DNA of 64,000 nucleotides from Christensenellaceae bacterium (GCA_045651405.1 JAZRSH010000029.1:97960-161959), one strand, 5' to 3'. Positions 4,405 to 24,551 are shown, counted from the first letter of the stretch. The notes: generated by a model not told the origin, from the sequence alone. Translations and numbers: made by a program.

Positions 4405-5223
4405 TTATTCCGGAAGTATATCGTCCTTATGTTTTTCAAGCCACTCACAGCAAACTTTATAGCCTTCGTGGTCAAGGTCTGCCATAGTGTTTGTGTGTAA
4501 ACAAATACCGTCAACTTCTTTATTTCTTAAAAGTTCGTAGTATCTGTCAAGTTGCCAAGCAACTTGTTTAGGGTCGGCTTTTTTATAGTCGCCAAAGTTG
4601 TATAAATACAAGCCTAAAATTCTCTTTTTGCCTTGTGTTTTTTCCTTATAAATTTTGAATTTATCCTCAAACTTCCAAAGGTTAGATTCACCCATAGTCC
4701 AAAGCATAATTCCGTCAAAAGGTTCTATATACGGCCAAAATTCCTTGTCTTTTTCAAGGTCAACGCCAAACTCGTCGGTGTATAAAACCATCCACATTTC
4801 AAGCGGTCTAACGTCGTTGTTGTGAAGTATATCCCTCGTTTTATAAATGTTTTCGATAGGGAAGTTTTTAAATCTTCCACCCGCGATAAAATCGTCGAAA
4901 ACACCGCAAGTGATATTTTTAAAATCCCTTGCTTCTTCAACGAGTTGCTTGGCAAAATCTGGGTTAGCGCCCGCGCCGTTTAAGGCTTCGCCACTTGCAT
5001 CGCGAAGTAAGTCCCAACCAACCCTTTGCATAGGTTTAAAAGAGTGGTTGTACTGCCTGCGGTTAACGTCTACGCCAACGGGTACCATAAATAGCCCCGT
5101 ACAGTCAAGATACATAGCCCCTTCAAGCGGAGTCATACGCGAAAGTTCCGTATTGCCGTATTCGTTATAATACTTGCCCTCTGGGTGCGCCCAAAGCCAA
5201 AGTTTATCCTTTAAAGTTGCCAT
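4405..5223 (-). CDS. hypothetical protein (272 aa)
   Basis: Long ORF with AAGGAGG just upstream of ATG 5223. No motif I can assign. Confidence 0.6.
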   Translation of the reverse strand: MATLKDKLWLWAHPEGKYYNEYGNTELSRMTPLEGAMYLDCTGLFMVPVGVDVNRRQYNHSFKPMQRVGWDLLRDASGEALNGAGANPDFAKQLVEEARDFKNITCGVFDDFIAGGRFKNFPIENIYKTRDILHNNDVRPLEMWMVLYTDEFGVDLEKDKEFWPYIEPFDGIMLWTMGESNLWKFEDKFKIYKEKTQGKKRILGLYLYNFGDYKKADPKQVAWQLDRYYELLRNKEVDGICLHTNTMADLDHEGYKVCCEWLEKHKDDILPE

Positions 5224-5287: not shown

Positions 5288-6214
5288 TTAGACAAAAAAC
5301 GTTTGTAAAATCCACAAAAATAGCGGTAAAGTAACAAGTGAAATTATAGTGCTTAAAGTTACCGTTTTTGCACCGATTTCACAAGTTTTGCCTATTGATT
5401 TAGGGTAAACAATAGTGTTCATACCGCCAGGCATTGATGCAAACATTACGGCTAAAATGGTTACCGTACTTGACTGATTTAAAAGTAAGCAGATACCTAA
5501 AACTATAAGTGGTAAGGCTATCATTTTAACAAGGGTAATTAAGTAAAATTTACCCCCTTTAAATATTTCTTTAATATTAAATCCACCGATAACTACGCCC
5601 GATAAAATCATTGCAAGTGGCGACATAGTGTTTCCTAAAGTTTCTAAAATTTCAACGGAAAAAGTTGGCAGTACTAAACCAGATAAACCTAAAATCATAC
5701 CTATAGGTATAGCTATTACAAACGGTACTAATAAACGCTTAAACTCTAAACGCTTTTGGTCGGTTAAAAGCCTATATCCTTCAACTGACGTAAACACCGT
5801 TACGAATATGCAAAACATCATAAAATCAAACATCATTTTTTCGCCGAAAAAGGCAAGGATTATAGGATAGGCAACGTAGCCGTAGTTGGGCACGGTAAAA
5901 ACGTATTTCAAAACGTTTCTTTCATAACCGTCTTTAGTGAATAATTTTGATATGAAAATCGCACCCACGTAAAGTATTGCTATTAAAATAATACCTTTAA
6001 GGGAGTATTCAATACTTGACGATAAATTTTCAAAGGTAAAATTCTTATAATACGATGCAACCGTAAAGCAAGGCGAAGACACGTAAAGCACCACTTTAGA
6101 TAGGGTGGTTGAAGAGTTTTCATCCAAAATTTTAAACCTTCTCAGCACAAAGCCTATCAAAACGTATATAAAAATTGTAAGTACGGGTGTAAAAACCACT
6201 AAATAATCGCCCAT
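5288..6214 (-). CDS. AEC (auxin efflux carrier) family permease
   Basis: Polytopic hydrophobic protein. N-terminus VLIGFVLRRFKIL and overall layout are typical of AEC/malate-permease-like transporters. AGGAG upstream. Confidence 0.65.
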   Translation of the reverse strand: MGDYLVVFTPVLTIFIYVLIGFVLRRFKILDENSSTTLSKVVLYVSSPCFTVASYYKNFTFENLSSSIEYSLKGIILIAILYVGAIFISKLFTKDGYERNVLKYVFTVPNYGYVAYPIILAFFGEKMMFDFMMFCIFVTVFTSVEGYRLLTDQKRLEFKRLLVPFVIAIPIGMILGLSGLVLPTFSVEILETLGNTMSPLAMILSGVVIGGFNIKEIFKGGKFYLITLVKMIALPLIVLGICLLLNQSSTVTILAVMFASMPGGMNTIVYPKSIGKTCEIGAKTVTLSTIISLVTLPLFLWILQTFFV

Positions 6215-6425
6215 CTTAACTCCTAAACACTTAGAAAATCAACCTTACGTTTAGCCGTAGCCTTATTCCTTAAATATAAAAACACTACTGCGTTGTAAAA
6301 GACACAATTTTTTAAAAGTGCAATACCATAATATGGTAATATAATAACTTTGTCAACGCTTTAGCAAATATTTAATAATTTTTTATTAAAAGGGTATAAA
6401 ATCGCTTTTCTTAAAAAAAATTTTG

Positions 6426-6490
6426 TGCTATAATGAACCCAAGTGGCGAAATACCACAAAAAAATGGTATTTTTGCCGACTAATTTTTTT
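6426..6490 (+). promoter_or_regulatory. extended -10 promoter followed by a terminator-like leader hairpin upstream of mdh
   Basis: TGcTATAAT at 6426-6434. Hairpin GGCGAAATACCA (6445-6456) / TGGTATTTTTGCC (6465-6477), then T7 at 6484-6490. The mdh ATG is at 6557. Confidence 0.45.
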
Positions 6491-6556
6491 GAAAGACTTT
6501 GTTAAAATTTTAACAAGCAAGACTAATTACTTAAATTAAGTAAAGGAGATAAATTT

Positions 6557-7504
6557 ATGAACAAGAAAATTACAATTATCGGTGCTGGTGCTGTTGGCTC
6601 TTCAATCGGCTACTTACTCGTTGCTGAATCTATCGCTTCAGAAGTAGTGTTTATTGACGTTAACAAAGATAAAGCTTCGGGCGAAGCAATGGATATTTAT
6701 CAATCTACTCCATTTTTATCGCCATCGGTAGTTCGTGCAGGCGAATATGAAGACGCTAAAGGTTCTGATATCGTAGTAATAACTTCAGGCGTAGCAAGAA
6801 AGCCAGGTCAAACACGTATTGACTTAGCAAAAATCAACGTTGGTATTATCAAGAGTATTGCTCCACAAATTACTGCAGTATGTCCTGACGCTATTTACGT
6901 TATCGTTGCTAACCCAGTTGACGTTTTAACTTACACATTCCACAAAGAAACTAATATCCCTGCAAACCGTATTATTGGTTCGGGTACAAGTTTAGATACT
7001 GCAAGATTAAGAACAAGACTTTCTGAAATCTACAAAGTATCTCCACTTCAAATCGAAGCTAACGTTTTAGGTGAGCACGGCGATACAATGTTCGTTGCTT
7101 GGTCAATGGCAAAAATCGCAGGTATTCCTATTGATGAATTCAAAAAGGTTACTACCGTTGAAAATAAGGACGTAGTTGCTTACGATAAAGAAGAAGTTGC
7201 TGAATACATTAGAAAATCAGGCGGTATTATCATTTCTAAAAAGGGCGCTACTTACAACGGTGTTGCCGCTGCAGTTGCACACATTTGTAAGAGCATCTAC
7301 TTAGGTATTGATAGCGTTATCTGTTTATCAGTACTTTTAAAAGGCGAATACGGTATTAACGACGTATGTATCAGTATTCCTACAATCGTAGGTAGAAACG
7401 GTATCGTTTCAACACTTACACCTACGTTAAGCGCAGAAGAACAAGCGCTTTTAGTTAAGAGTGCTGACGCAATGAAAAGCGTTATTGACCAAATTAAAGA
7501 ATAA
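6557..7504 (+). CDS. mdh: malate dehydrogenase (LDH-like family)
   Basis: Rossmann motif ITIIGAGAVGSS. Substrate loop GVARKPGQTR has Arg where L-LDH has Gln102, which is the MDH discriminator. Followed by fumarase. Confidence 0.8.
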   Translation: MNKKITIIGAGAVGSSIGYLLVAESIASEVVFIDVNKDKASGEAMDIYQSTPFLSPSVVRAGEYEDAKGSDIVVITSGVARKPGQTRIDLAKINVGIIKSIAPQITAVCPDAIYVIVANPVDVLTYTFHKETNIPANRIIGSGTSLDTARLRTRLSEIYKVSPLQIEANVLGEHGDTMFVAWSMAKIAGIPIDEFKKVTTVENKDVVAYDKEEVAEYIRKSGGIIISKKGATYNGVAAAVAHICKSIYLGIDSVICLSVLLKGEYGINDVCISIPTIVGRNGIVSTLTPTLSAEEQALLVKSADAMKSVIDQIKE

Positions 7505-7526
7505 TTATTGATAAGGAGATTTTGAT

Positions 7527-8891
7527 ATGGGTTATCGTATAGAAAGAGATACCATGGGCGAAATGAGGGTTCCTGACGATAAGTATTGGGCTGCTCAAAC
7601 GCAAAGAAGTTTAGAAAACTTCAAAATCGGTGGCGAAGTGATGCCAAGGGAAATTACCCACGCATTTGGTATTTTGAAAAAAGCAGCCGCTATTGCGAAT
7701 TTCCGCTTAGGTAAAATTAGCGAAGAAAAATTACAATACATCTCTAAAGCGAGTGATGAAGTTATCGAAGGAAAACTTAACGACCACTTCCCACTCGTTG
7801 TATGGCAAACGGGTTCTGGTACTCAATCAAACATGAACGCAAACGAAGTTATTGCGGGTAGGGGCAACGAACTTGCAGGCACTAAACTTTTACATCCAAA
7901 CGATGATATTAACAAAAGCCAATCAAGTAACGATACCTTCCCAACTGCAATGCACATTGCCGCAGTTATTGCCATCGAAGATAAATTAATTCCTGCAATG
8001 GATAAATTTATTGCAACGCTTGCTCGTTTAGAAGAAGAAAACAAAGACGTTGTAAAAAGTGGTAGAACTCACTTACAAGACGCTGTTCCTATTAGTTTCG
8101 GTCAAGAAATTAGCGGTTGGCGTGCAATGGTTGAAAAGAGCAGGGGTATGATTATCGCATCTCTTGACGGTCTTAGGGAACTCGCGCTCGGCGGTACTGC
8201 CGTTGGTACGGGTTTAAATGCTCCTAAGGGCTTTGCCGAAGCAGTTGCTGAAGAAGTAAGCAATATTTCTGGTAAAAAGTTCATTACTGCTCCTAACAAA
8301 TACCACTCTTTAACTTCTAAAGACGAACTCGTATTTGCACACGGCGCGTTAAAAGGCTTAGCCGCTAACATGATGAAGATAGCAAACGACGTTAGATGGC
8401 TTGCATCAGGCCCTCGTTGTGGTCTTGGCGAAATCTTTATTCCTGAAAACGAACCGGGTTCTTCAATCATGCCAGGTAAGGTTAACCCAACACAATGCGA
8501 ATCAATGACTATGGTTGCCGTTCAAGTTATGGCTAACGACGTAGCAGTTGGTATGGGTGCATCTCAAGGTAACTTTGAACTCAACGTATTTATGCCTGTA
8601 ATTATCTACAACTTCTTACAATCGGTAAGACTTCTTGCAGACGGTCTTGTTTCTTTCAACGACAACTGCGCGGTAGGTATTAAGGCAAACAAAGAAAAAA
8701 TGAACCACAATCTTTATAACTCTTTAATGTTAGTTACAGCACTTAACCCTTATATCGGTTATGAAAACGCTGCTAAAACTGCTAAAAAGGCTCATAAAGA
8801 AAATATAAGTTTAAAACAAGCCTGCGTGGAACTTGGATTCTTATCTGAAGAAGAATTTGACAAAGTATTCCACCCAGAGCAAATGATATAA
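7527..8891 (+). CDS. fumC: class II fumarate hydratase
   Basis: Signature GSSIMPGKVNPTQCE. 454 aa. Confidence 0.95.
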   Translation: MGYRIERDTMGEMRVPDDKYWAAQTQRSLENFKIGGEVMPREITHAFGILKKAAAIANFRLGKISEEKLQYISKASDEVIEGKLNDHFPLVVWQTGSGTQSNMNANEVIAGRGNELAGTKLLHPNDDINKSQSSNDTFPTAMHIAAVIAIEDKLIPAMDKFIATLARLEEENKDVVKSGRTHLQDAVPISFGQEISGWRAMVEKSRGMIIASLDGLRELALGGTAVGTGLNAPKGFAEAVAEEVSNISGKKFITAPNKYHSLTSKDELVFAHGALKGLAANMMKIANDVRWLASGPRCGLGEIFIPENEPGSSIMPGKVNPTQCESMTMVAVQVMANDVAVGMGASQGNFELNVFMPVIIYNFLQSVRLLADGLVSFNDNCAVGIKANKEKMNHNLYNSLMLVTALNPYIGYENAAKTAKKAHKENISLKQACVELGFLSEEEFDKVFHPEQMI

Positions 8892-8901
8892 TAGGTAGAT
8901 T

Positions 8902-9684
8902 ATGAAGTTTAGTTATTATCCGGGTTGTACCCTCAAAACAAAGGCAAAAGAACTTGATATCTACGGCAGAAAGGCTCTTGAAGCGCTTGGCGTAGATTTT
9001 GAAGAAGTAAAAGAATGGCAATGTTGCGGTGCTGTTTATCCAGTAGCGAAAGACGAAGTTGCAACTAAACTTTCAGCGGTAAGAACGCTTGCTTCTTCAA
9101 TGGAAGACGACGGCAAAGTATTAACTTTATGTTCGGCTTGTCACAACGTTTTAAAACGCGTTAACGACGATATGAAAAACGACGCTAATATCCGTTTTAA
9201 AGCAAATAACTATTTAGGTTTAGAAACTCCATATAACGGTGAGGCGGAAGTTATTCACTACTTGGAAGTGCTTAAAAACTACGTTGGTTTTGACAAAATT
9301 AAAGAAAAAGTTGTTAAACCTTTAAAAGACGTTAAAATTGGTGCTTACTACGGCTGTTTACTTCTTCGTCCAAGCGGTGTTTTAGCATTTGATAATCCTG
9401 AAAATCCTACAATCATTGAAGATTTCATCAAGGCTATCGGTGCTACGCCTGTAGTTTATCCGTTTAGAAACGAATGTTGCGGTGCTTACGTTTCTTTAAC
9501 TAAAAAGGAACTTGCAGAGGCAAAATGCAAATCAATAATTAACTCGGCAAAAGATGCTAAGGCAGATATGCTTGTAACGGCTTGTCCGTTATGTATGTAT
9601 AACTTAACTGAAAACGGCAAAAACGCTATTCCTGTTAAGTACTTTACTGAACTTTTAGCTGAGGCTTTGGGGGTTAAGGAGTAA
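8902..9684 (+). CDS. hdrB: heterodisulfide reductase subunit B-like protein (two CCG domains)
   Basis: N-terminus YYPGCTL. Two CCG motifs (WQCCGAVYP, NECCGAYVS). Confidence 0.85.
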   Translation: MKFSYYPGCTLKTKAKELDIYGRKALEALGVDFEEVKEWQCCGAVYPVAKDEVATKLSAVRTLASSMEDDGKVLTLCSACHNVLKRVNDDMKNDANIRFKANNYLGLETPYNGEAEVIHYLEVLKNYVGFDKIKEKVVKPLKDVKIGAYYGCLLLRPSGVLAFDNPENPTIIEDFIKAIGATPVVYPFRNECCGAYVSLTKKELAEAKCKSIINSAKDAKADMLVTACPLCMYNLTENGKNAIPVKYFTELLAEALGVKE

Positions 9685-9687
9685 GTT

Positions 9688-10074
9688 ATGGAAAAGAACG
9701 AACAAGTAAAACTCATTAAAGAAAGAAGTGGTACCGACGCTAAAAAATGTATGAAATGCGGTAAGTGTTCGGGTAGATGTCCAGCCTTTTCTGAAATGGA
9801 TATTAAACCACACCAATTCGTTAGTTATATAGAAAAGGGCGAAATTGACAAGTTACTTCAAAGCAAATCATTATTTACTTGCTTAACTTGTTTCGCTTGC
9901 GTAGAAAGATGTCCAAGGGGTGTTGCTCCTGGTGCGATTATCGAGGCTGTAAGACAAGAACTTATTAGAACGCAAGGTGAAAATCGCGTACAAGCTGAAG
10001 AAATTCCTTCACAAATTGATGAACAAATTCCTCAACAACTCTTAGTGAGTATGTTTAGAAAGTTTAATAAATAA
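9688..10074 (+). CDS. hdrC: heterodisulfide reductase subunit C-like 4Fe-4S protein
   Basis: CMKCGKCSGRCP and CLTCFACVERCP motifs. 128 aa. Confidence 0.8.
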   Translation: MEKNEQVKLIKERSGTDAKKCMKCGKCSGRCPAFSEMDIKPHQFVSYIEKGEIDKLLQSKSLFTCLTCFACVERCPRGVAPGAIIEAVRQELIRTQGENRVQAEEIPSQIDEQIPQQLLVSMFRKFNK

Positions 10075-10095
10075 TTTATATATAGGAAGTGAAAT

Positions 10096-12087
10096 ATGCA
10101 AAAAATAGGCGTATTCGTGTGTTGGTGTGGTACCAACATCGCAGCGACGGTTGACGTCGTTAAAGTTGCTGAAGCCCTTAGATTAGAACCAAACGTTGTA
10201 ATTTCAGAAAATTATCAATATATGTGTTCTGAAAACGGTCAAGCACTTATTAGAAATGCAATCAAAGAACACGGACTTACAGGTGTTGTAGTATGTTCTT
10301 GTTCTCCAAGAATGCACGAAGCAACATTTAGAAAAACTTGTGAATCTGCAGGTATTAACCCTTACATGGTTGAAATTGCAAACATTAGGGAACAATGTTC
10401 TTGGATTCATAAAGACATTGATGAAGCAACTGAAAAGGCTATCATCTTAGGTAGAACTGCTATCGCTAAGTTAAGACTTAACGCACCTCTTACTTCAGGT
10501 GAAAGCCCTGTTGTTAAAAGAGCACTCGTTATCGGCGGTGGTATCGCAGGTATTCAATCTGCCCTTGACATTGCAGAAGCAGGCTTTGAAGTTGATATCG
10601 TAGAACAATCGCCAACTATCGGCGGTAACATGGCTAAACTTGATAAAACTTTCCCAACCCTTGACTGTGCGGCTTGTATCTTAACGCCAAAAATGGTAGA
10701 CTGCGCTCAAAATGAAAAAATCGACATCATGACTTTCAGCGAAGTTGAAGCAGTTAAAGGTTTCGTAGGTAACTTCAAGGTTAAAATTAGAAGAAAAGCA
10801 AGATTCGTTAATGAAGATACTTGTACTGGTTGTGGTATTTGTACTCAAAAATGTCCTTCTAAGAAAGGTCTTAACGAATTCAATATGGGTCTTAATAACC
10901 GTCCAGCAATCTATATTCCGTTTGCTCAAGCAATTCCTAACGTTGCTATTATCGACCCTGAACAATGCTTAAAGATTAAAAATGGTAAGTGTGGTCTTTG
11001 CGCAATGCAATGTCCTACAAAGGCTATCGACTACACTATGCAAGATTCTTTCGTTGAAAGGGAATACGGCGCTATCGTAGTTGCTACTGGTTTTAAACCT
11101 ATCTCTCTTGAAAACTTCAACGAATACGGCTACTCTACTTATAAAGACGTAGTAACTTCACTTGAATTTGAAAGAATTATGAACGCTGCAGGTCCTACAA
11201 GCGGTAAACTCGTTCGTCCTTCAGACGGTAAACACCCAAGGGTTATTACCTTTATTCAATGCGTAGGTTCAAGGGATACTTCAGGTTGCGGTAAGCCATA
11301 CTGCAGTAAGATTTGCTGTATGTATACTGCAAAACACGCAATGCTCGTTAGAGAAAAATATCCTGATACCGAAGTACATATCTTCTATATCGACGTAAGA
11401 ACACCTGGTAAAAACTACGATGAATTCTTCCGCCGTGCAGTTGAACAATACGACGTTGACTATATTAAAGGTATGGTTGGTAAAGTTTATGCCGATGGCG
11501 ATAAACTTATGGTACAAGGCTCTGACCTTTTAAGCAACGAACAAATTATTATCCCTTCAGATATGGTTGTTCTTGCTGCGGCTATCGAACCTAATCCATC
11601 AGTTAGAAATATCGCAACAATGGTAACTGCAAGTATCGATACTAACAACTTCTTAACTGAAGCGCACGCTAAGTTAAAACCAGTTGAAAGCCCAACTGCA
11701 GGTATCTTCTTATCAGGCGTATGTCAAGGCCCTAAAGATATCCCTGAAACTGTATCTCAAGCAAGTGCTTGTGCTGCAAAGGTTATCGGCTTACTTGCTA
11801 AAGATAAACTTAAATGTAATGCTTGCGTTGCTCATTCGGACGAAATGATTTGTACAGGTTGTTCGGTATGTGAAAACGTATGTCCTTACGGTGCTATTAC
11901 TTACGTTGATAAAGAATATCGTATCGGCGGTGGTAAAACTGAAATTAGACGTGTTGCAACCGTTAACGAAGCAGTATGTCAAGGTTGTGGTGCTTGTACG
12001 GTTACTTGTCCTTCGGGCGCTATGGACCTTAAAGGCTTTGCAACTAAACAAATTATGGCGGAGGTAGATGCAGTATGCAAGAGATAA
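10096..12087 (+). CDS. hdrA: heterodisulfide reductase subunit A-like FAD/Fe-S protein
   Basis: N-terminal VFVCWCGTNI, dinucleotide fold LVIGGGIAGIQSAL, several CxxCxxCxxxCP ferredoxin motifs. 663 aa. Confidence 0.85.
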   Translation: MQKIGVFVCWCGTNIAATVDVVKVAEALRLEPNVVISENYQYMCSENGQALIRNAIKEHGLTGVVVCSCSPRMHEATFRKTCESAGINPYMVEIANIREQCSWIHKDIDEATEKAIILGRTAIAKLRLNAPLTSGESPVVKRALVIGGGIAGIQSALDIAEAGFEVDIVEQSPTIGGNMAKLDKTFPTLDCAACILTPKMVDCAQNEKIDIMTFSEVEAVKGFVGNFKVKIRRKARFVNEDTCTGCGICTQKCPSKKGLNEFNMGLNNRPAIYIPFAQAIPNVAIIDPEQCLKIKNGKCGLCAMQCPTKAIDYTMQDSFVEREYGAIVVATGFKPISLENFNEYGYSTYKDVVTSLEFERIMNAAGPTSGKLVRPSDGKHPRVITFIQCVGSRDTSGCGKPYCSKICCMYTAKHAMLVREKYPDTEVHIFYIDVRTPGKNYDEFFRRAVEQYDVDYIKGMVGKVYADGDKLMVQGSDLLSNEQIIIPSDMVVLAAAIEPNPSVRNIATMVTASIDTNNFLTEAHAKLKPVESPTAGIFLSGVCQGPKDIPETVSQASACAAKVIGLLAKDKLKCNACVAHSDEMICTGCSVCENVCPYGAITYVDKEYRIGGGKTEIRRVATVNEAVCQGCGACTVTCPSGAMDLKGFATKQIMAEVDAVCKR

Positions 12088-12515
12088 ATAAAGAACATAA
12101 ACCGCTTATCGTAGCATTTTGCTGTAACTGGTGTAGTTATGCTGGTGCTGACTTAGCAGGCTCTTCAAGACTTTCTTACCCTGCTAACGTTAAAATTATA
12201 AGAGTACCTTGCTCATGCAGGGTAAACCCAACTTTCGTATTAAAGGCTTTCCAAAAGGGTGCTGACGGCGTTATCTTATGTGGTTGTCACCCAGGCGACT
12301 GCCACTATACAACTGGTAACTACTATACAAGAAGAAGAATGTCTTTACTTTTCAGTATGCTTGACTATTTAGGTATTGAAAGGGAAAGAACAAGAGTTGA
12401 ATGGGTTTCTGCTGCGGAAGGTGCAAAATTTAGTAACGTAATGAACGATTTTGCTAAGACCATTACAGAACTCGGTGAAAATAAAAGGTTGGAGGATTTA
12501 AGATGCAAAGATTAG
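12075..12515 (+). CDS. mvhD: MvhD/FlxD-like (methyl-viologen-reducing hydrogenase delta-type) subunit
   Basis: FCCNWCSYAGADLAG, VPCSCRVNP and CGCHPGDCHY motifs. Overlaps the hdrA end by 13 nt. Confidence 0.85.
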   Translation: MQEINKEHKPLIVAFCCNWCSYAGADLAGSSRLSYPANVKIIRVPCSCRVNPTFVLKAFQKGADGVILCGCHPGDCHYTTGNYYTRRRMSLLFSMLDYLGIERERTRVEWVSAAEGAKFSNVMNDFAKTITELGENKRLEDLRCKD

Positions 12516-13468
12516 AAACTGCTGTTAAAAGTAAAGCAATCGAACTTTTAAATAATCAAACCGTAAACCGTGTTCTTGGTTGGACTAAAGGCGAATTTTG
12601 TTACGACGTATCGCCTGCAGTATTCTACAGTGAAAAGGATTTAGAAAACTTCGTTTACAACGGTTTCTGCGGTGCAAACCTTTCTAAATACCTTATCGAA
12701 GAAAGCAAAAAAGAAGGCAAGATTTTAGTTTTCTTAAAACCTTGCGACACTTACAGCTTTAACCAACTTATTAAAGAACACAGAATTAAAAGGGAAAACG
12801 TTTACATTGTTGGCGTAGAATGTCAAGGCAAGTTTGACGTTCAAAACCTTTACGCAAAGGGTATTGAGTTCGTTGATAGCGTTGAAGAAACTTTAGATAA
12901 AGTTACTGTAAACGGCAATATCGAACTTACAAGAGACGATATCAAACTTGAAAGATGTACAGTTTGCGATAAAAAACACGTTGTTTACGATGAAATCGTT
13001 GAAATCAACGAAAAAATCCCTTCAAACAAAGATAGATTTGAACTCGTTAAAAAACTTGAAGCAATGACTGCTGATGAAAGATACGCTTTCTGGAAGAGTG
13101 AACTTTCTAAATGTATTCGTTGTAACGCTTGTAGAAACGTATGTCCTGCATGTAACTGTACTAAATGCGTATTCGATAACGATAATTCAACAATCGCATC
13201 TAAAGCAAACTCGGATAGTTTTGAAGAAAAATTATTCCACATTATCAGGTCTTTCCACGTTGCAGGCCGTTGTACTGACTGTGGCGAATGTTCAAGGGTA
13301 TGCCCACAAAATATTCCACTTCACTTAATCAATAGAAAGTACATTAACGACGTTAACGAATTATACGGCGAATTCCATGCTGGTGAAGACGACCACTCTA
13401 AAGGTCCTTTAACAAGCTTTACTAAAGAGGATAAAGACCCATCTGAAGCAGTAAGGAGGGATAAATAA
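12503..13468 (+). CDS. 4Fe-4S dicluster subunit (FlxC-like)
   Basis: CIRCNACRNVCPAC and CTDCGECSRVCPQ motifs. Overlaps the previous gene by 13 nt. Confidence 0.6.
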   Translation: MQRLETAVKSKAIELLNNQTVNRVLGWTKGEFCYDVSPAVFYSEKDLENFVYNGFCGANLSKYLIEESKKEGKILVFLKPCDTYSFNQLIKEHRIKRENVYIVGVECQGKFDVQNLYAKGIEFVDSVEETLDKVTVNGNIELTRDDIKLERCTVCDKKHVVYDEIVEINEKIPSNKDRFELVKKLEAMTADERYAFWKSELSKCIRCNACRNVCPACNCTKCVFDNDNSTIASKANSDSFEEKLFHIIRSFHVAGRCTDCGECSRVCPQNIPLHLINRKYINDVNELYGEFHAGEDDHSKGPLTSFTKEDKDPSEAVRRDK

Positions 13469-14499
13469 TGAAGAGAATTTCTTACGATAAAATTAATTTA
13501 TTATATAATGAATTATCTCAAATTACTGAACTTTACTTACCTGTTAAAGAAAGCGGTGCTGTAAACTTCAAAAAGTACGACGAAACACAAACTCCTGATA
13601 TTGAAACTTTACAAACTGTAAAATCTGCTAAAGATTTATTCTTCCCACAATCGGAAGATATGGTAAAATTCAAAACTGATGGTAAAAACATTGAAATTAC
13701 CGATGCAAGAATTATAAAAGACAGTTTTGTTCTTTTTGGCGTTCGTGCTTGCGATATGCGTAGTTTTGAAATTTTAGATAAGGTATTTTTACAAGAACCT
13801 GTTGATACTATGTATCAAAACAAAAGGGAAGCAGGTATTATCTTTACCCTTGCTTGTAACAATCCACAACCTTCATGTTTTTGTAAAGTGTTTGGCATTG
13901 ATGCGTCAAAACCACAAGGTGACGTTGAATGCCGCTTAGTAGACGGCTACTTATACTTAGAAGGTAAAACTGAAAAAGGCAATGCTATCTTAGCAAAATT
14001 AACTTGCTTAGAAGATGCTAAAGACGGCGAAAAAGTAGCAGATAAAAACGCAAAAGAAATCCAAGAAAAAATTGAAAAACTTCCTTTCAGCAATTTAGAT
14101 TTATCTAACTTCAAAGGTGACAACTTAATGCCACTTTTCGATAGACCTGAATGGGAAGAATTAAGCAAAGCATGTTTAGGTTGCGGTACTTGTACTTTCG
14201 TATGTCCTACTTGCCAATGCTTTGATATTAGAGATTTCAAAACTAACGACGGCGTTAAAAGATTTAGATGTTGGGACTCTTGCATGTATTCAGAATTCAC
14301 AAAAATGGCTGCTGAAAACCCAAGAAAGAACCAACTTCAAAGATACCGTCAAAGATTTATGCACAAACTTGTATACTTCCCATCTAATAACGACGGTGTA
14401 TACAGCTGTGTAGGTTGCGGTAGATGTGTTAAAAAATGTCCACAATCACTCAACATAGTAAAAGTAATTAAAAAACTCGGGGGTAACAACAATGACTAA
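13468..14499 (+). CDS. AsrA/HydB-like 4Fe-4S subunit (FlxB-like)
   Basis: CLGCGTCTFVCPTCQC and CVGCGRCVKKCPQ motifs. ATG overlaps the preceding stop (TAATG). Confidence 0.6.
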   Translation: MKRISYDKINLLYNELSQITELYLPVKESGAVNFKKYDETQTPDIETLQTVKSAKDLFFPQSEDMVKFKTDGKNIEITDARIIKDSFVLFGVRACDMRSFEILDKVFLQEPVDTMYQNKREAGIIFTLACNNPQPSCFCKVFGIDASKPQGDVECRLVDGYLYLEGKTEKGNAILAKLTCLEDAKDGEKVADKNAKEIQEKIEKLPFSNLDLSNFKGDNLMPLFDRPEWEELSKACLGCGTCTFVCPTCQCFDIRDFKTNDGVKRFRCWDSCMYSEFTKMAAENPRKNQLQRYRQRFMHKLVYFPSNNDGVYSCVGCGRCVKKCPQSLNIVKVIKKLGGNNND

Positions 14500-15319
14500 T
14501 GAAGAATTGATTCCTAAAATCGGCGTCATAACTAATATTAGAAGAGATACGCCTGACGTTAAAACTTTTAGAGTTGTAGGCCTTGACGGTAAAAAATTAT
14601 TCGAACATTTACCTGGTCAATGTGCAATGATTTCAATTCCTGGCGTAGGCGAAGCGATGTTCTCAATCACTTCTTCTCCTACCAACACGGAATTTATGGA
14701 GTTCTCAATTAAAAAATGTGGTTGCGTAACTTCTTTCTTACACGCAATGGAAGAAGGTCAACAAATCACGGTAAGAGGACCTTACGGTAACGGTTTCCCA
14801 GTAAAAGGCGCATTTAAAGGCAAAAACATGCTCTTTATCGCTGGTGGTATCGGCTTAGCTCCACTCCGTTCAGTTATCAACTATATAAGAGATAACAGGG
14901 CAGACTACGGCACGGTTGATATCGTTTACGGTTCTCGTTCAATGGACGACCTTGTAGACTTTAGAGAAATTCAAGAAGAATGGGTAAACGAACCAGACTT
15001 CAACGTATATCTCACAATCGATAGACCACAAGACGGTTGGGACGGCCACGTAGGTTTCGTACCTGCATACGTTAAGGAAGTTAATATTCCTACAGACAGA
15101 ACGGCAGTTCTTTGCGGTCCACCTATCATGATTAAGTTTACACTTCAAGCACTTTTAGAACTCGGCTTTAATAAAGAGCAAGTTTACACCACGTTAGAAT
15201 TTAGAATGAAATGTGGTATCGGCAAATGCGGTCGTTGCAACGTTGGCGACAAGTACATTTGTAAAGACGGCCCTGTATTTAGAATGGACCAACTTCAAGA
15301 ACTCCCTTCAGAGTATTGA
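14492..15319 (+). CDS. AsrB/HydG/PyrK-like FAD-NAD(P)-binding subunit with 2Fe-2S (FlxA-like)
   Basis: Ferredoxin-reductase-type fold (MLFIAGGIGLAPLRS). C-terminal CGIGKCGRCNVGDKYICKDGPVF. Confidence 0.7.
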   Translation: MTNEELIPKIGVITNIRRDTPDVKTFRVVGLDGKKLFEHLPGQCAMISIPGVGEAMFSITSSPTNTEFMEFSIKKCGCVTSFLHAMEEGQQITVRGPYGNGFPVKGAFKGKNMLFIAGGIGLAPLRSVINYIRDNRADYGTVDIVYGSRSMDDLVDFREIQEEWVNEPDFNVYLTIDRPQDGWDGHVGFVPAYVKEVNIPTDRTAVLCGPPIMIKFTLQALLELGFNKEQVYTTLEFRMKCGIGKCGRCNVGDKYICKDGPVFRMDQLQELPSEY

Positions 15320-15339
15320 TTATATAGGAGAAAACTAAA

Positions 15340-16014
15340 ATGGAAAAAATGGTAAATGTATATTTTTTCGGTAAAAAATACCAAGTTCCACAAAGCCTTA
15401 CTATTATGAAGGCTATGGAATACGCAGGTTACAAATTAATTCGTGGTTGTGGTTGCCGTAACGGTTTCTGTGGCGCGTGCGCTACTTTATATAGAATTCA
15501 CGGCAAAACAGAACTTAAAACTTGTCTTGCATGTCAACAACAAGTAGAAGAAGGTATGTACGTAGCTACTCTTCCTTTCTTCCCACTCGTTAAACAAGTT
15601 TACGATATTCAAAAGGTAAAACCAACTGAACAAATCATGATGCAATTATATCCTGAAATTTATAGTTGTATCGGCTGTAACGCTTGTACTAAAGCTTGCC
15701 CACAAAGTTTAAAAACAATGCAATACATTGCTTACGCACAACGTGGTGAATACGATAAATGTGCTGAAGAATCTTTTGACTGCGTAATGTGCGGTATCTG
15801 TTCTTCAAGATGCCCAGCAGGTATTTCACACCCACAAGTAGCAATCCTTGCTCGTAGACTTTACGGTAAATACATAGCACCTGAATGCGAACACCTTTTA
15901 GATAGAGTTAAAGAAATCAACGAAGGTAAGCACGATGACAGCATGAGCGATATCATGAACAAATCTCTCGAAGAGCAAAAAGCCCTTTACAATACGAGAG
16001 ATATTGAAAAGTAA
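15340..16014 (+). CDS. frdB: SdhB/FrdB-like iron-sulfur subunit
   Basis: 2Fe-2S-type CGCRNGFCGACA..C motif plus CIGCNACTKACP and CVMCGICSSRCP. Confidence 0.7.
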   Translation: MEKMVNVYFFGKKYQVPQSLTIMKAMEYAGYKLIRGCGCRNGFCGACATLYRIHGKTELKTCLACQQQVEEGMYVATLPFFPLVKQVYDIQKVKPTEQIMMQLYPEIYSCIGCNACTKACPQSLKTMQYIAYAQRGEYDKCAEESFDCVMCGICSSRCPAGISHPQVAILARRLYGKYIAPECEHLLDRVKEINEGKHDDSMSDIMNKSLEEQKALYNTRDIEK

Positions 16015-16029
16015 TAGGGAGGAACTCAA

Positions 16030-17640
16030 ATGTATCAATATACTCAAGAACAACTTGATTCTATAAAGAAAGTAGAGGCTTCAAGAAAAGAAAGACTTGA
16101 AAACCTTCACCCAAGAATGACTGCTGATGAAAAAACTGCAGTATTACAAGAATTCCACCCAGACTATATCGAAGGTGCATACGAAACTTTAAAAATTGGT
16201 CCTAACAAAGGCGAAAAAGTTCTTCACGAACTCGCTGACCTTTTACAAGGTAAATCAAGGGTTGGTTCTCTTAAATTCGACCTTAAAAAACCTGATTATG
16301 ACGTAGACGTTTTAGTTATCGGTGGCGGTGGCGCAGGTTCTTCTGCAGCGGTTACAGCACACGCTAACGGCGCTAACGTTATGATTGTTACTAAACTTAG
16401 AATTGGTGACGCTAACTCAATGATGGCTGAAGGTGGTATCCAAGCGGCTGATAAGCCTAACGATAGCCCTGCTAGGCACTATCTTGATGCTTTTGGTGGC
16501 GGTCACTTTGCTGCTAAACCTTGCTTACTTGAAAAACTCGTTAAAGAAGCACCTGACGCTATCCGTTGGCTTTCTGACCTTGGCGTTATGTTCGATAAAG
16601 ACGAAAACGGTAACATGGTAACTACACACGGTGGCGGTACTTCAAGAAAGAGAATGCACGCTTGTAAAGACTATTCAGGTGCTGAAATCATGAGAACTCT
16701 TCGTGACGAAGTTATCAATAGGGGTATTCCTGTAATTGACTTTACTTCTGCTGTTGAAATCATTAAAGATGAAAACGGTAAAGCAGCCGGTGCAGTTTTA
16801 GTTAATATGGAAACTAACGAAGTTTTAATTGCTAAAGCAAAAACAGTTATCATCGCAACTGGTGGTGCTGGTAGACTTCACTATCAAGGCTTCCCAACTT
16901 CTAACCACTACGGTGCAACTGCCGACGGTTTAGTTCTTGCTTACCGTGCAGGCGCAAAACTTTTATACGCAGATACTTTACAATATCACCCAACTGGTGC
17001 TGCAGAACCTACACAAATTTACGGTGCGTTAGTTACTGAAAAAGTACGTTCACTTGGCGCACAACTCGTTAACAAAGATGGTAAACCTTTCGTTTACTCA
17101 CTTGAAACACGTGACGTAACTGCATCTACTATCATTAGAGAATGTAAAGGTCGTGGCAACGGTGTTAAAACTACTGACGGCGAAGGCGTATGGCTTGATA
17201 CACCAATGATTGAAATTATCGGTGGCGAAGGCACTATCGAAAAGAGAATCCCTGCAATGATGAGAATGTTCGGTAAATACGGTATCGATATTAGAAAAGA
17301 ACCTATCTTAATTTACCCAACACTTCACTACCAAAACGGTGGTATCGATATCAATGCTGACGGCGAAACTACAAACATAGAAAACCTTTACGTTGCAGGT
17401 GAGGCTGTTGGTGGTATCCACGGTAGAAACCGTCTTATGGGTAACTCACTTTTAGATATTATCGTATTCGGTAGAAATGCTGGTAAATATGCAAGTGAAA
17501 AGGTTAAAGCAGGCGTTAAAGTTGGCAAACTTACTTTAGACCACGTTAAAGCCTTTGAAAAAGAAAGAAAAGAAGCAGGTATTAAATCTGATATTCTTTC
17601 ACCAAAGCTTTTACCTGATTATACTCGCAAAGACCTTTAA
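16030..17640 (+). CDS. frdA: SdhA/FrdA-like flavoprotein (probable soluble fumarate reductase catalytic subunit)
   Basis: VLVIGGGGAGSSAAV FAD fold, LQYHPTG, GEAVGGIHGRNRLMGNSLLDIIVFG. The context of mdh, fumC and an Fe-S partner supports the call. Confidence 0.7.
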   Translation: MYQYTQEQLDSIKKVEASRKERLENLHPRMTADEKTAVLQEFHPDYIEGAYETLKIGPNKGEKVLHELADLLQGKSRVGSLKFDLKKPDYDVDVLVIGGGGAGSSAAVTAHANGANVMIVTKLRIGDANSMMAEGGIQAADKPNDSPARHYLDAFGGGHFAAKPCLLEKLVKEAPDAIRWLSDLGVMFDKDENGNMVTTHGGGTSRKRMHACKDYSGAEIMRTLRDEVINRGIPVIDFTSAVEIIKDENGKAAGAVLVNMETNEVLIAKAKTVIIATGGAGRLHYQGFPTSNHYGATADGLVLAYRAGAKLLYADTLQYHPTGAAEPTQIYGALVTEKVRSLGAQLVNKDGKPFVYSLETRDVTASTIIRECKGRGNGVKTTDGEGVWLDTPMIEIIGGEGTIEKRIPAMMRMFGKYGIDIRKEPILIYPTLHYQNGGIDINADGETTNIENLYVAGEAVGGIHGRNRLMGNSLLDIIVFGRNAGKYASEKVKAGVKVGKLTLDHVKAFEKERKEAGIKSDILSPKLLPDYTRKDL

Positions 17641-17763: not shown

Positions 17764-17808
17764 TAGCACTTTATTTAAGTGTGGTATAAATTTTATTTAA
17801 AAAATTAT

Positions 17809-17836
17809 AATACGGACGTAATGCTACGTCCGTATT
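17809..17836 (+). other. perfect 12-bp hairpin in the 5' region of the AAE transporter gene
   Basis: AATACGGACGTA atgc TACGTCCGTATT. No U-run on the plus strand. 26 nt before ATG 17862. Confidence 0.6.
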
Positions 17837-17861
17837 AGTCCGTAAAAATATAGGAGATATT

Positions 17862-19259
17862 ATGGAAAAATCTAACAAAAAAAGCCTTAAATGGCTTTGG
17901 ATTACTCTTGCTATACTCGCAGTAGTAGCTCTTGCTGCTTGGTGTGTATATAATGCTTTAGAGGCACATAGTGTTAATAAAGTTTTTAAATTTAGTACAA
18001 CAGCATCATTATTTATTTTAATATTTATAATAACAGCTCTTGGTTACTTACTTGGTTCTATAACTATTAAAGGTGTTAACTTAGGTACTGCAGGCGTGTT
18101 CTTGGTTGCTATCTTATTTGGGTTTATATGCACTCTTAATTTTGGTAATGTTCCAGTTATTGGTTCTTTCCACGTTGAATCAGGCGATACTATTGTAGAA
18201 ACAATGGGTGGCTCTATTCAAAACTTAGGTCTTATTATGTTCGTAGGTTCAGTAGGTCTTATTGCAGGTCCTAACTTCTTTAAAAACCTTAAAAAGAACT
18301 TTAAAACCTATATCGTTTTAGGTGCAATAATTATTATATCATCAACTGCTGTTGCGGTATTATTTACTGCTATAACTGATTATGGCTCAGGTTTTTGGGC
18401 AGGTATTTTATCAGGTGCGTTAACTACTACCCCTGGTTTCTCTGCTGCACAAGAAGCAACTCTTTCAGTTCTTCAATCATTACCTCAATATGCTAATCTT
18501 ACTACTGAGGCTTTAAGACAACTTCCAGAGTACACCATTATTTCAGTAGGTCATGCTATTGCTTATCCTTTCGGTGTTGTAGGCGTAGTATTATTCGTTC
18601 AACTTCTTCCTAAACTTTTAAAAGCTGATATGGTTAAAGAACGTGAACTTTTAAGAATTGGTGGAGATGAGGGTGAAAAATCTTATTCAAATCTTTTCGA
18701 AGTTGAACCTTTTGGTCTTGTTCCCGTTGCTTTAACAGTAGTTTTAGGATTAGTATTAGGCGCTGTTAAAATTCCATTATTTGGTGGTTCTGCATTTAGT
18801 TTAGGAACAACTGGTGGTGTGCTTATTATCGGTTTAGTTTTAGGTCACTTTGGTAAAATTGGCAAAATATCTCTTCAAGTTCCAGCAACTACACTTAAAC
18901 TTTTAAGAGAATTTGGTTTAATGCTTTTCCTTTTAGGTGCAGGTTTTGAAGGTGGTGTAAGTTTAGTTGCATCATTATCAGGCAAAGGTGCTGATATTGT
19001 TATTTTAGGTTTTGTTGGTGGTGCATGTATGACTATTGCTCCAATGATTGTAGGTTTTATTTTAGCAAAACTTGTTATGAAACTTCCACTTTTAAATACT
19101 TTAGGTTCAATTACTGGTGGTATGACTTCTACTCCAGCACTTGGAACGCTTATCAACACTGCTAAAACTGAAGATGTAGCGTCTGCTTACGCATCAACTT
19201 ATCCAATTGCACTTGTGCTTGTAGTACTTGCTTGTCAATTAATGATTGTTTTTATGTAG
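17862..19259 (+). CDS. AAE (aspartate:alanine exchanger / YidE-YbjL) family transporter
   Basis: Two homologous halves with the family motif (GVNLGTAGVFLVAILFG and SLGTTGGVLIIGLVLG). Polytopic. No central TrkA-C domains apparent. Confidence 0.65.
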   Translation: MEKSNKKSLKWLWITLAILAVVALAAWCVYNALEAHSVNKVFKFSTTASLFILIFIITALGYLLGSITIKGVNLGTAGVFLVAILFGFICTLNFGNVPVIGSFHVESGDTIVETMGGSIQNLGLIMFVGSVGLIAGPNFFKNLKKNFKTYIVLGAIIIISSTAVAVLFTAITDYGSGFWAGILSGALTTTPGFSAAQEATLSVLQSLPQYANLTTEALRQLPEYTIISVGHAIAYPFGVVGVVLFVQLLPKLLKADMVKERELLRIGGDEGEKSYSNLFEVEPFGLVPVALTVVLGLVLGAVKIPLFGGSAFSLGTTGGVLIIGLVLGHFGKIGKISLQVPATTLKLLREFGLMLFLLGAGFEGGVSLVASLSGKGADIVILGFVGGACMTIAPMIVGFILAKLVMKLPLLNTLGSITGGMTSTPALGTLINTAKTEDVASAYASTYPIALVLVVLACQLMIVFM

Positions 19260-20804: not shown

Positions 20805-20805
20805 A

Positions 20806-20964
20806 GGCTCTTCAACGTCAACGGTTGATAAAGTCCTAATGAAACGCGGCGTAATAGTGCGTTAAAGCCCTTGAAAAGATGTAAACTCTTATCTTCGGGT
20901 GTTTGCCTTCTATTACTTGTGTTTGATTTGTCCTTTAGTATCAACCTTATGGTTTTTCATCACC
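20806..20964 (+). repeat. family-2 long-hairpin intergenic repeat, copy B
   Basis: Starts 2 nt after stop TAA 20802-20804. Near-identical to copy A over 159 bp. Confidence 0.9.
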
Positions 20965-20971
20965 TAATAAA

Positions 20972-20999
20972 AAAGACTAACGAATTATCGTTAGTCTTT
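20972..20999. terminator. bidirectional terminator (GH28-like / GNAT)
   Basis: AAGACTAACGA atta TCGTTAGTCTT with A-run before and T-run after. Confidence 0.8.
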
Positions 21000-21002
21000 A
21001 TT

Positions 21003-21488
21003 TTATATACTTTTTTGATAAGCAAGTCTTGGGTCACCGTTTGCAAGGTAAATAATACCGCAATACTTAAAGCCGTTTTTAGTTAGTGATTTTTGCATTA
21101 CTAAGTTTTCTTTGCTTGTGTCTATCCGCAAATTATTGCATTTAGAAAGGGCAAAATCATAGCAAATTTTAGCAACGCCTTTGCCGTGAACTACCGTGCC
21201 TATTCTGTGAATAACAACGTACTTTTCATCATTGAGCCAACTTCCTTCATAAATTTTTTCGTAAGTAGGGTCGTTGCCGATAAACATCATAAAAACGGCT
21301 ATAAGTTCACACTCTTCGTAAACGCCGTAAAGCCTATCGTTTTTTATATCTTCAAGTACCAATTCCCTTGAGGGATAACCGTTAGTCCATTGATGCATAT
21401 TACCGTTTTGGCGCATAAAATTACGCGCGTTATCGTAAATTTCCATTATTTTATCAATTTCACTAAGGGTGCAATGTTTTATTACCAT
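21003..21488 (-). CDS. GNAT family N-acetyltransferase
   Basis: 161 aa. HRIGTVVHGKGVAKICYDFAL and MQKSLTKNGFKY are typical GNAT motifs A/B. Confidence 0.75.
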   Translation of the reverse strand: MVIKHCTLSEIDKIMEIYDNARNFMRQNGNMHQWTNGYPSRELVLEDIKNDRLYGVYEECELIAVFMMFIGNDPTYEKIYEGSWLNDEKYVVIHRIGTVVHGKGVAKICYDFALSKCNNLRIDTSKENLVMQKSLTKNGFKYCGIIYLANGDPRLAYQKSI

Positions 21489-21499
21489 AATTTTTTATC

Positions 21500-23089: not shown

Positions 23090-23254
23090 TTAGTATTCCA
23101 CCCTAAAAATCCAATTTTTATTATTTTATTACATATAGCAAAGGTTGTCAACACATATTTAAAAAGACAAAATATTTTAATTTACTTATTGATTTTTTTC
23201 TTGCCACTTGATATAATAAAAATAAATAAACTAATTGATTTAAAAGAAGGCAAA

Positions 23255-24544: not shown

Positions 24545-24551
24545 TTTTTTT

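Follow-up and report, generated by a model that had tools for sequence, protein, structure and literature searches.

A conserved operon of Christensenellaceae predicted to encode a membrane-free, Hdr/Flx-linked fumarate reductase

The eleven-gene operon

The stretch of DNA described here, 64,000 nt from a Christensenellaceae bacterium (GCA_045651405.1, JAZRSH010000029.1:97960-161959) and referred to over its whole length as the window, harbours an operon in which genes for a soluble fumarate reductase, comprised of a flavoprotein (FrdA) and an iron-sulfur subunit (FrdB), lie directly downstream of genes for relatives of heterodisulfide reductase (Hdr) and of the Flx proteins. Eleven open reading frames (ORFs) run on the + strand from 6557 to 17640, at the coordinates given in an earlier, sequence-only reading of the same DNA; successive genes are spaced by 22, 10, 3 and 21 nt, then overlap by 13, 13, 1 and 8 nt, and are finally spaced by 20 and 15 nt. 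That reading had also noted the lack of an internal terminator and of a FrdC/D- or SdhC/D-type membrane anchor, and both observations hold. Within the block, the + strand carries just three stems of 6-7 pairs, all in frdB and none of them strong, and the regional total of 16 terminator-like sites is near the expectation from shuffling (mean 11.5 +/- 3.8). No anchor-like ORF is found in the block or in related loci; at the window locus, the transporters encoded on either side of the block are the sole membrane proteins. The gene overlaps and the lack of a strong terminator speak indirectly for co-transcription.

The arrangement is widely conserved. In a scan that took one genome per species, 551 of 600 matching stretches were confirmed, giving a total of at least 551, the 80 closest of which formed the synteny set. 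The order hdrB-hdrC-hdrA-mvhD-flxC-flxB-flxA-frdB-frdA is kept in all of these 80 loci that have sufficient flanking sequence, with median gaps between neighbouring genes of -10 to +21 nt; given this recurrence, the nine-gene arrangement is far from chance. On the 5' side a fumarase gene is nearly always present and a malate dehydrogenase (MDH) gene often. Among the matches listed, the nearest relatives are metagenome-assembled genomes (MAGs) of uncultured Christensenellaceae and other Clostridia from the guts of human, sheep, goat, yak and deer. A divergently oriented AEC-family permease gene (5288-6214) was considered as a further component of the system and dropped, as it is not conserved in the related loci.

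Profile hidden Markov model searches of each ORF (Pfam, NCBIfam) bore out the subunit assignments of the sequence-only reading. The first gene (6557-7504) encodes a lactate dehydrogenase (LDH)-like MDH, matched by Ldh_1_N/C and predicted to convert oxaloacetate to malate. In its motif GVARKPGQTR, arginine occupies the position held by Gln102 in LDH and Arg102 in MDH, as it does in 37/37 orthologues, and the protein passes the NCBIfam MDH model PRK06223 (290, cutoff 283), in agreement with the earlier call; two L-LDH models are also passed, so that automated annotation may label the gene as LDH. The second gene (7527-8891) encodes a class II fumarase, FumC (TIGR00979; 740 bits, cutoff 665).

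The next seven genes encode the Hdr and Flx subunits. The HdrB-like protein (8902-9684) has two complete CCG motifs (PF02754 matched twice) and is predicted to bind two non-cubane 4Fe-4S clusters; its residues 1-235 align with methanogen HdrB (8rvv_B, E = 2e-34), all ten of the CCG cysteines being kept, and its top NCBIfam match is the SdhE model, at 147 bits against a cutoff of 500. An HdrC-like protein with motifs for two 4Fe-4S clusters follows (9688-10074; Fer4_8/Fer4_17); among NCBIfam models it scores best with that for CoB-CoM heterodisulfide reductase subunit C. HdrA (10096-12087; HdrA2 model, 781 bits), with sites for FAD and several 4Fe-4S clusters, matches a bifurcating HdrA of solved structure over its full length (residues 3-659 against 5-648 of 5odc_A, E = 1e-196). 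Next come an MvhD/FlxD-like 2Fe-2S subunit (12075-12515; PF02662 FlpD, 190 bits), a FlxC-like iron-sulfur subunit (12503-13468) that has generic Fer4-type dicluster matches alone and shares 24% identity with the C-terminal region of its neighbour, and that neighbour itself, a FlxB-like iron-sulfur subunit of the AsrA/HydB/ShyB family (13468-14499; Fer4_22, 108 bits), scoring 177 bits with the NCBIfam model for ShyB and 139 bits with that for AsrA, both under the cutoffs. The last of the seven is a FlxA-like, AsrB/HydG-like flavoprotein (14492-15319) comprised of FAD_binding_6, NAD_binding_1 and DHODB_Fe-S_bind domains, the last supplying a C-terminal 2Fe-2S motif; from these domains, this NAD(P)H-binding protein is predicted to be the entry point for NADH.

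The FrdB-like subunit (15340-16014; 224 residues) has one 2Fe-2S and two 4Fe-4S motifs, with twelve cysteines invariant in seven diverse orthologues: C39, C44, C47 and C65, in the SdhB-type N-terminal pattern C-x4-C-x2-C...C, and those of two full CxxCxxCxxxCP motifs. As both ferredoxin-type motifs have four cysteines, one 2Fe-2S and two 4Fe-4S clusters are predicted, the 3Fe-4S cluster being absent. The best match in the PDB is the dicluster domain of RnfC, alongside a weak match to the 2Fe-2S region of W. succinogenes FrdB; weak NCBIfam matches to the 2Fe-2S regions of TfrB and SdhB were also found, and a profile search detected no CCG domain. The NCBIfam model of TfrB, from the thiol:fumarate reductase TfrAB of methanogens, is matched in turn by FrdB (positions 19-94), HdrC (131-222) and HdrB (263-487), so these three proteins together resemble a split TfrB. 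FrdB proteins linked to Hdr genes end in a common C-terminal tail of some 20 residues, which those linked to a NuoF-like gene (see below) lack and which may serve in docking.

The FrdA-like flavoprotein (16030-17640) is short, at 536 residues. FAD_binding_2 covers residues 93-474, Succ_DH_flav_C (PF02910) has no match in the protein, and the conserved, helical N-terminal extension of about 92 residues is without counterpart in structural alignments with SdhA, FrdA and flavocytochrome c3; an exhaustive search of 1.84 billion representatives returned around nine full-length clusters having this extension. All NCBIfam scores fall below their cutoffs: 332 for TfrA (cutoff 718), 275 for SdhA/FrdA and 272 for NadB (cutoff 453). 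The match to the TfrA model covers positions 6-406 of 546 and leaves the C-terminal 140 or so (407-546) unmatched. Nevertheless the dicarboxylate site of E. coli SdhA is present in full, with H320 corresponding to H242, T336/E337 to T254/E255, R361 to the proton donor R286, H433 to H354 and R468 to R399, and alignments of both distant and close relatives show little or no variation at these positions. At the position of SdhA H45, to which FAD is covalently attached, stands an invariant asparagine (N129), and the FAD is therefore predicted to be non-covalently bound. An AlphaFold model from an 80-sequence alignment (pLDDT 85, pTM 0.87) had its closest structural match in E. coli FrdA (1kf6_A, E = 9e-33, over some 454 aligned columns); further SdhA/FrdA proteins and flavocytochrome c3 ranked next.

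In a bootstrapped distance tree of 387 columns, with outgroups labelled by NCBIfam, the window protein falls within a clade of Hdr-linked FrdA from Clostridia and Bathyarchaeota (99% bootstrap). This clade nests, with weak support (45%), in a wider group including the NuoF-linked proteins, the sister group being short proteins of about 410 residues (84%); true TfrA (P0219, 765 bits), SdhA/FrdA proteins and E. coli NadB all lie outside. Judged by these sequence comparisons, the flavoprotein is a distinct short subfamily apart from NadB, true TfrA and quinol-type FrdA. L-aspartate oxidase (NadB), whose clustering with the protein the sequence-only reading had named as grounds for abandoning its proposal, was rejected on the tree, on the score of 272 against 453 bits, on the replacement of NadB Glu121 by His (H200) and on the constancy of the iron-sulfur partner. 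True TfrAB was rejected on the TfrA score of 332 against 718, the partial match to that model, the different position in the tree and the CCG-free FrdB, and a quinol-type fumarate reductase or succinate dehydrogenase on the lack of an anchor, covalent-FAD histidine, Succ_DH_flav_C domain and 3Fe-4S motif, the catalytic residues being present. The earlier labels of 'SdhA/SdhB-like' need to be narrowed: the FrdA-FrdB pair forms a distinct, shorter subfamily, and FrdB is only a remote relative of SdhB.

FrdB and FrdA in other gene contexts

The FrdB-FrdA pair (FrdBA) is found beside several kinds of partner. The cultured Maledivibacter halophilus (L083) has the order fumC-frdB-frdA-hdrB-hdrC-hdrA-mvhD-flxC-flxB-flxA, and a MAG labelled Bacteroidaceae (L087) has the gene order of the window, with an AEC-family permease in place of the AspT-type transporter. 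In two Bathyarchaeota-type contigs, Hdr genes are present and Flx genes are not: one (L082, 744-9415) has genes for a 2-oxoacid:ferredoxin oxidoreductase followed by hdrA-mvhD-hdrC-hdrB-frdB-frdA, and the other (L086, 2497-11659) has hdrC-hdrB-frdB-frdA, with a 2-oxoacid:ferredoxin oxidoreductase and an hdrA-mvhD fusion gene beside it on the opposite strand. The link between Hdr and FrdBA therefore recurs both in Maledivibacter, in another gene order, and in Bathyarchaeota. In the tree, the FrdA proteins of the two archaeal contigs group together with a clostridial sequence (97% support), a placement suggestive of transfer between domains.

By contrast, two gammaproteobacterial-type contigs (L081, 9366-12891, and L085, 9363-13320) have frdB-frdA followed by a gene for a NuoF-like protein (Complex1_51K) and lack Hdr genes; in the second, a class I fumarase gene and a dicarboxylate-type transporter gene adjoin. 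These clusters look like three-subunit soluble NADH:fumarate reductases. A short contig (L084, 5250-7433) encodes a 727-residue fusion of FrdB and FrdA, with no Hdr genes in the 5 kb upstream that this contig offers. As FrdBA is joined to Hdr with Flx, to Hdr with 2-oxoacid:ferredoxin oxidoreductase or to a NuoF-like partner, it is a portable terminal module. Fumarase adjoins FrdBA in three architectures, as the class II enzyme with Hdr-Flx (window, L083 and L087) and as the class I enzyme with the NuoF-like partner (L085), and this adjacency in independent architectures supports fumarate as the substrate of FrdBA.

The leader, the transporter and carbon supply

The operon has a leader of 342 nt. 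A candidate extended -10 element, TGcTATAAT, lies at 6426-6434 on the + strand, where it may act as a promoter, and TGnTATAAT is found at the same position in the leaders of orthologous loci. Between this element and the palindrome described below is a terminator- or attenuator-like hairpin at 6442-6481 with a T-run at 6484-6490 (6442-6490, +; -15.1 kcal/mol, z = -3.7), matched by no Rfam family. When folded separately, ten orthologous leaders keep the fold with differing sequences in the inner stem.

A perfect 18-bp palindrome, TTGTTAAAATTTTAACAA, occupies 6499-6516, 41 nt before the MDH start codon, and is a candidate operator for Rex, the NADH/NAD+-sensing repressor, since it matches TTGTTAAnnnnTTAACAA, the clostridial Rex operator consensus. 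TTGTTAAnnnnTTAACAA has a single exact match in the window, where 0.03 would be expected. Each of 14 related loci has one exact copy of the palindrome, always upstream of the operon; in 10/14 it lies 32-65 nt before mdh and in the other 4/14 at the 5' end of the locus, and no further exact copy occurs in about 1.1 Mb. The same intergenic region of the window holds a copy with two mismatches, 150 nt further upstream (6350-6367). All window ORFs of at least 150 residues were scanned and none is a rex gene; a 211-residue ORF at 36050-36685, considered as one, encodes a small multidrug export protein instead. From the sequence of this box, a high NADH/NAD+ ratio probably switches the operon on through Rex in the sub-clade of the window. 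If correctly assigned, such an operator would tie expression to NADH excess, fitting NADH as the electron donor.

Downstream, 221 nt separate frdA from a + strand gene (17862-19259) for a transporter of the AspT/YidE/YbjL (AAE) family (Asp-Al_Ex, 218 bits). This interval contains a strong 13-bp palindromic hairpin (17808-17837) with no T-run 3' of it on the + strand, and about 20 nt upstream of the hairpin the sequence TGgTATAAA, through which the transporter gene may have its own promoter and form a separate transcription unit. An AspT-family transporter follows frdA in most, though not all, of the related loci. The Corynebacterium succinate exporter SucE is a member of the same family, and the window protein is a putative succinate exporter. 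A GTP-type phosphoenolpyruvate carboxykinase (PEPCK; 49094-50887, +; PEPCK_GTP, PEPCK_N) is encoded outside the operon, 31 kb downstream, and is probably the source of oxaloacetate for a succinate branch. After the operon lies a pectin/uronate utilisation cluster (19518-27160) with genes for GH28 and GH39 enzymes, KDPG aldolase, a polysaccharide deacetylase and a PfkB-family kinase, which fits a gut organism fermenting plant fibre.

Proposed reaction, alternatives and known relatives

The gene content, cofactor motifs, catalytic residues, conserved synteny and modular distribution of FrdBA observed here make it, in our judgement, somewhat more probable than its negation that the operon encodes a reductive C4 fermentation branch with a membrane-free, NADH-oxidising and ferredoxin-reducing bifurcating fumarate reductase. 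Oxaloacetate from PEPCK would be reduced to malate by the LDH-like MDH and converted to fumarate by FumC. NADH would be oxidised at FlxA, and its electron pair, relayed by the clusters of FlxB, FlxC and MvhD, would be bifurcated at the HdrA FAD: the downhill electron would travel by the clusters of HdrC and HdrB to FrdB, the non-covalent FAD of the short FrdA and fumarate, and the uphill electron by the ferredoxin-like domains of HdrA to ferredoxin. The net reaction would be 2 NADH + fumarate + Fd(ox) -> 2 NAD+ + succinate + Fd(red), after which reduced ferredoxin could drive H2 formation or an ion pump and succinate could leave by the AAE-family transporter. The conversion of malate through fumarate to succinate, coupled to Hdr and Flx, is thus still the best reading of the locus, as first put forward; it is the variant with a thiol intermediate and the assertion of novelty that have not stood.

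Several lines of evidence support the parts of this scheme. The complete dicarboxylate site and the FrdA/SdhA fold point to fumarate as substrate, and the invariant order of nine nearly abutting genes, together with the 99% support for a Hdr-linked clade of FrdA, to the link with Hdr. The full-length likeness of HdrA to a solved bifurcating HdrA supports its competence in bifurcation, and the NAD-binding domain of FlxA and the Rex-type operator support the link to NADH. Electron transfer from NADH to fumarate releases enough energy to drive the reduction of ferredoxin, at about -58 kJ/mol (table of PMC13147460); by our own estimate from standard potentials, about -40 kJ/mol would be left after one electron pair had been raised to ferredoxin. 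From this evidence we infer that the subunits associate, that NADH is the donor, that ferredoxin is reduced by bifurcation and that electrons pass directly from HdrB to FrdB.

A fuller model, which we put forward tentatively and think somewhat more apt to fail in one of its parts than to hold in all of them, is that the nine redox subunits form a single cytoplasmic supercomplex of the HdrA-type bifurcating class in which the high-potential acceptor is the C=C bond of fumarate rather than a disulfide. In this supercomplex the non-cubane clusters of HdrB would have become a simple electron relay on which FrdBA docks, FrdBA would be interchangeable, in Bacteria and Archaea alike, among Hdr plus Flx, Hdr plus 2-oxoacid:ferredoxin oxidoreductase and NuoF-like donors, and the succinate of Christensenellaceae would be tied to H2 formed from ferredoxin.

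Among the alternatives, the one that survives best, though we think it unlikely, is a non-bifurcating NADH:fumarate reductase in which the Hdr and Flx proteins are a mere electron wire and no ferredoxin is reduced. The gammaproteobacterial pairing of FrdBA with a single NuoF-like NADH module argues that so simple an enzyme is viable, and a five-subunit enzyme of Hydrogenobacter thermophilus, purified, soluble, NADH-dependent and with FrdA and FrdB as its catalytic subunits, has been characterised (Miura et al. 2008, as cited in PMC13147460). In the account given there, the H. thermophilus enzyme differs from the window system in that bifurcation has not been reported for it and in having its genes scattered; the idea that it has Hdr-like subunits found no support in the Aquifex aeolicus homologues aq_116, nox and dmsB2 (PMC10052474). 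On the other hand, seven additional redox subunits, among them a complete HdrA with ferredoxin-like domains, would be a costly wire, and the strict conservation of all seven over hundreds of species argues that they are used.

It is less probable again that two enzymes are joined by a thiol cycle, Flx-Hdr using NADH to reduce ferredoxin and a disulfide, of a small thiol or a DsrC-like protein, and FrdBA re-oxidising the thiol to reduce fumarate in the manner of methanogen TfrAB. HdrB has all the ligands of the disulfide-reducing non-cubane clusters, TfrA is the best NCBIfam model for FrdA, and for Endoriftia a DsrC-like protein has been put forward as the route (PMC11636981). Such a cycle needs both a disulfide-reducing and a thiol-oxidising site, however, and each cluster encodes one CCG protein; in TfrAB it is the CCG domains of TfrB to which thiol oxidation is ascribed, and the FrdB described here has none. 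The TfrA score is less than half the equivalog cutoff (332 against 718), the operon holds no thiol-carrier gene and, with gaps of at most 22 nt, no room for one, and the NuoF-linked form of FrdBA occurs without any CCG protein. The cycling of a thiol/disulfide between HdrB and FrdAB, offered as an alternative in the sequence-only reading, is accordingly disfavoured, the single CCG protein being on the Hdr side and none on that of Frd, and direct transfer from HdrB to FrdB is favoured, as it also is by the way FrdB, HdrC and HdrB jointly span the three regions of the single TfrB chain.

That the flavoprotein acts on another substrate, such as L-aspartate or a different unsaturated acid, and that the neighbouring fumarase is incidental, is very improbable. 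This would accord with the sub-cutoff scores of all NCBIfam models, the NadB score of 272 being close to the 275 bits for SdhA/FrdA, and with the varied substrates of FAD_binding_2 reductases in gut anaerobes, but not with the conserved dicarboxylate-binding set, the histidine in place of NadB Glu121, the separate position of E. coli NadB in the tree, the constant iron-sulfur partner or the fumarase found adjacent in three architectures. Least probable of all is the oxidative direction, in which succinate would be oxidised with reduced ferredoxin as a co-donor to NADH (confurcation) or the enzyme would be a reversible valve: bifurcating enzymes are reversible in principle, and the archaeal association with 2-oxoacid:ferredoxin oxidoreductase fits either direction of a pathway of the tricarboxylic acid (TCA) type, but the gene content of the window is that of an organism fermenting sugar and pectin, with PEPCK, MDH and an exporter-type transporter, and the Rex-type operator implies induction under NADH excess.

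Some points weigh against the bifurcating fumarate reductase itself. A literature search found no biochemical report on any member of the Hdr/Flx-FrdAB group, and no characterised precedent could be verified for a plain relay role of the non-cubane clusters of HdrB. The lack of Flx in the archaeal clusters means that the electron donor is not universal, and the Rex operator is a candidate assigned by its match to a consensus, the box being present in one sub-clade and missing from more distant loci. Menaquinone synthesis and a canonical membrane-bound fumarate reductase may be encoded elsewhere in the genome, beyond the 64 kb of the window. In Ca. Endoriftia, for which co-expression data are available, tfrAB departs from the pattern of expression shared by the other genes of the cluster (PMC11636981). 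Finally, the likeness to this symbiont and to Pseudoclostridium thermosuccinogenes, described below, was drawn from published descriptions of the gene clusters.

The operon had been thought undescribed, which proved wrong: the same gene set is described in PMC7282089 and the same complex is proposed in PMC6315080, PMC11636981 and PMC13147460, and since 2019 genome analyses have predicted a Hdr/Flx-linked fumarate reductase on several occasions. It still holds, more narrowly, that no Hdr/Flx-FrdAB complex is known to have been characterised, as the literature search returned no purification or assay. In the Firmicute P. thermosuccinogenes, a 'succinate operon' (CDQ83_RS03320-RS03365) consists of genes for fumarase, seven Flx-Hdr proteins, the two subunits of a fumarate reductase and a putative succinate transporter, which are jointly up around four-fold under CO2 limitation by RNA-seq, with GTP-PEPCK feeding the succinate branch (PMC7282089). 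Electron bifurcation was proposed in a 2019 preprint that this paper cites. By description, the gene inventory, order, proposed reaction and GTP-PEPCK are the same as those of the window, which differs in the MDH gene in front and in its origin in uncultured gut and rumen Christensenellaceae; in both organisms the function is a prediction.

Similarly, in tubeworm symbionts and Thioflavicoccus mobilis the reductive TCA (rTCA) clusters have tfrAB genes interspersed with flxABCD-hdrABC and korABCD, and direct passage of electrons from the complex to fumarate reductase was suggested (PMC6315080), and the idea that NADH reduces both fumarate and ferredoxin has since been restated (PMC13147460). Ca. 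Endoriftia persephone and T. mobilis thus share with the window an AB-type soluble fumarate reductase beside Flx-Hdr and the same bifurcation hypothesis, but theirs is an autotrophic rTCA cluster with 2-oxoglutarate:ferredoxin oxidoreductase (OGOR), ATP-citrate lyase, Pnt and Rnf, while that of the window is a fermentative branch. The gammaproteobacterial relatives L081 and L085, unlike the Hdr-linked Endoriftia cluster, pair FrdBA with a NuoF-like subunit. What is added here is the short FrdA/FrdB subfamily, the modular distribution of FrdBA, the argument from one CCG protein and the Rex-type operator in a sub-clade.

Better characterised systems share parts of the arrangement. FlxABCD-HdrABC of Desulfovibrio vulgaris shares with the window the NAD(P)H flavoprotein FlxA, the iron-sulfur protein FlxB, FlxD/MvhD and HdrABC, and has the same seven subunit types if the putative FlxC is counted; as presented in the papers that cite it, its proposed acceptor is a disulfide (DsrC) and its role is in ethanol metabolism (Ramos et al. 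2015, cited in PMC7282089 and PMC6315080). The window operon, by contrast, brings a terminal reductase of its own (FrdBA), and its genes are arranged as hdrBCA-flxDCBA. The methanogen MvhAGD-HdrABC and Fdh-Hdr complexes (5odc, 7bkb, 8rvu) resemble the window proteins nearly over the full length of HdrA, HdrB, HdrC and MvhD, with the cluster ligands kept. They differ in using H2 or formate as donor and CoM-S-S-CoB as acceptor. Bacteria of the kind considered here are not known to make CoM or CoB.

TfrAB of Methanothermobacter is likewise soluble, and its TfrB unites the FrdB-like 2Fe-2S, dicluster and CCG domains that are split here over FrdB, HdrC and HdrB; compared with TfrA, the window FrdA has an N-terminal extension and lacks the C-terminal part of the TfrA model. 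In the type E succinate:quinone reductase or methylmenaquinol:fumarate reductase (SdhABE), an HdrB-like CCG protein, SdhE, is the direct partner of SdhAB. The iron-sulfur subunit of type E enzymes has a second 4Fe-4S cluster instead of 3Fe-4S. These enzymes differ in being membrane-associated and quinone-linked, and the window HdrB is far below the SdhE cutoff. Bcd-EtfAB follows the same energetic logic of NADH oxidation, C=C reduction at a positive potential and ferredoxin reduction, but is made of unrelated proteins and has a bifurcating flavin of the Etf rather than the HdrA type.

If a bifurcating fumarate reductase is indeed encoded, quinone-free succinate fermenters would gain reduced ferredoxin, and from it extra H2 or ion-motive force, at a step usually ascribed to a membrane respiratory chain. 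The enzyme would be the first of the Hdr class of bifurcating enzymes to have an organic, non-sulfur acceptor, and would give CCG proteins and their non-cubane clusters a second role. Few gut taxa are as widespread and heritable as the Christensenellaceae; with the gene set found in at least 551 stretches from species-representative genomes, this could be a significant, overlooked route to succinate and H2 in human and ruminant guts. The cultured M. halophilus and P. thermosuccinogenes are tractable targets, for which the NuoF-linked form is a natural control.

Elsewhere in the window, ORFs of 272, 397, 412 and 555 residues, found within 4405-5223 (-), 28791-31223 (+) and 52505-54172 (+), had no Pfam match at the thresholds applied. 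Probable surface proteins, namely two of BspA type with leucine-rich repeats and one of 938 residues with collagen triple-helix repeats, are encoded at 34768-36003, 43263-46079 and 57668-59173. Near the 5' end, a T-box leader (290-487; Rfam RF00230, 102 bits) precedes a hexapeptide-repeat transferase gene and a cysteinyl-tRNA synthetase-like gene (427-2557).

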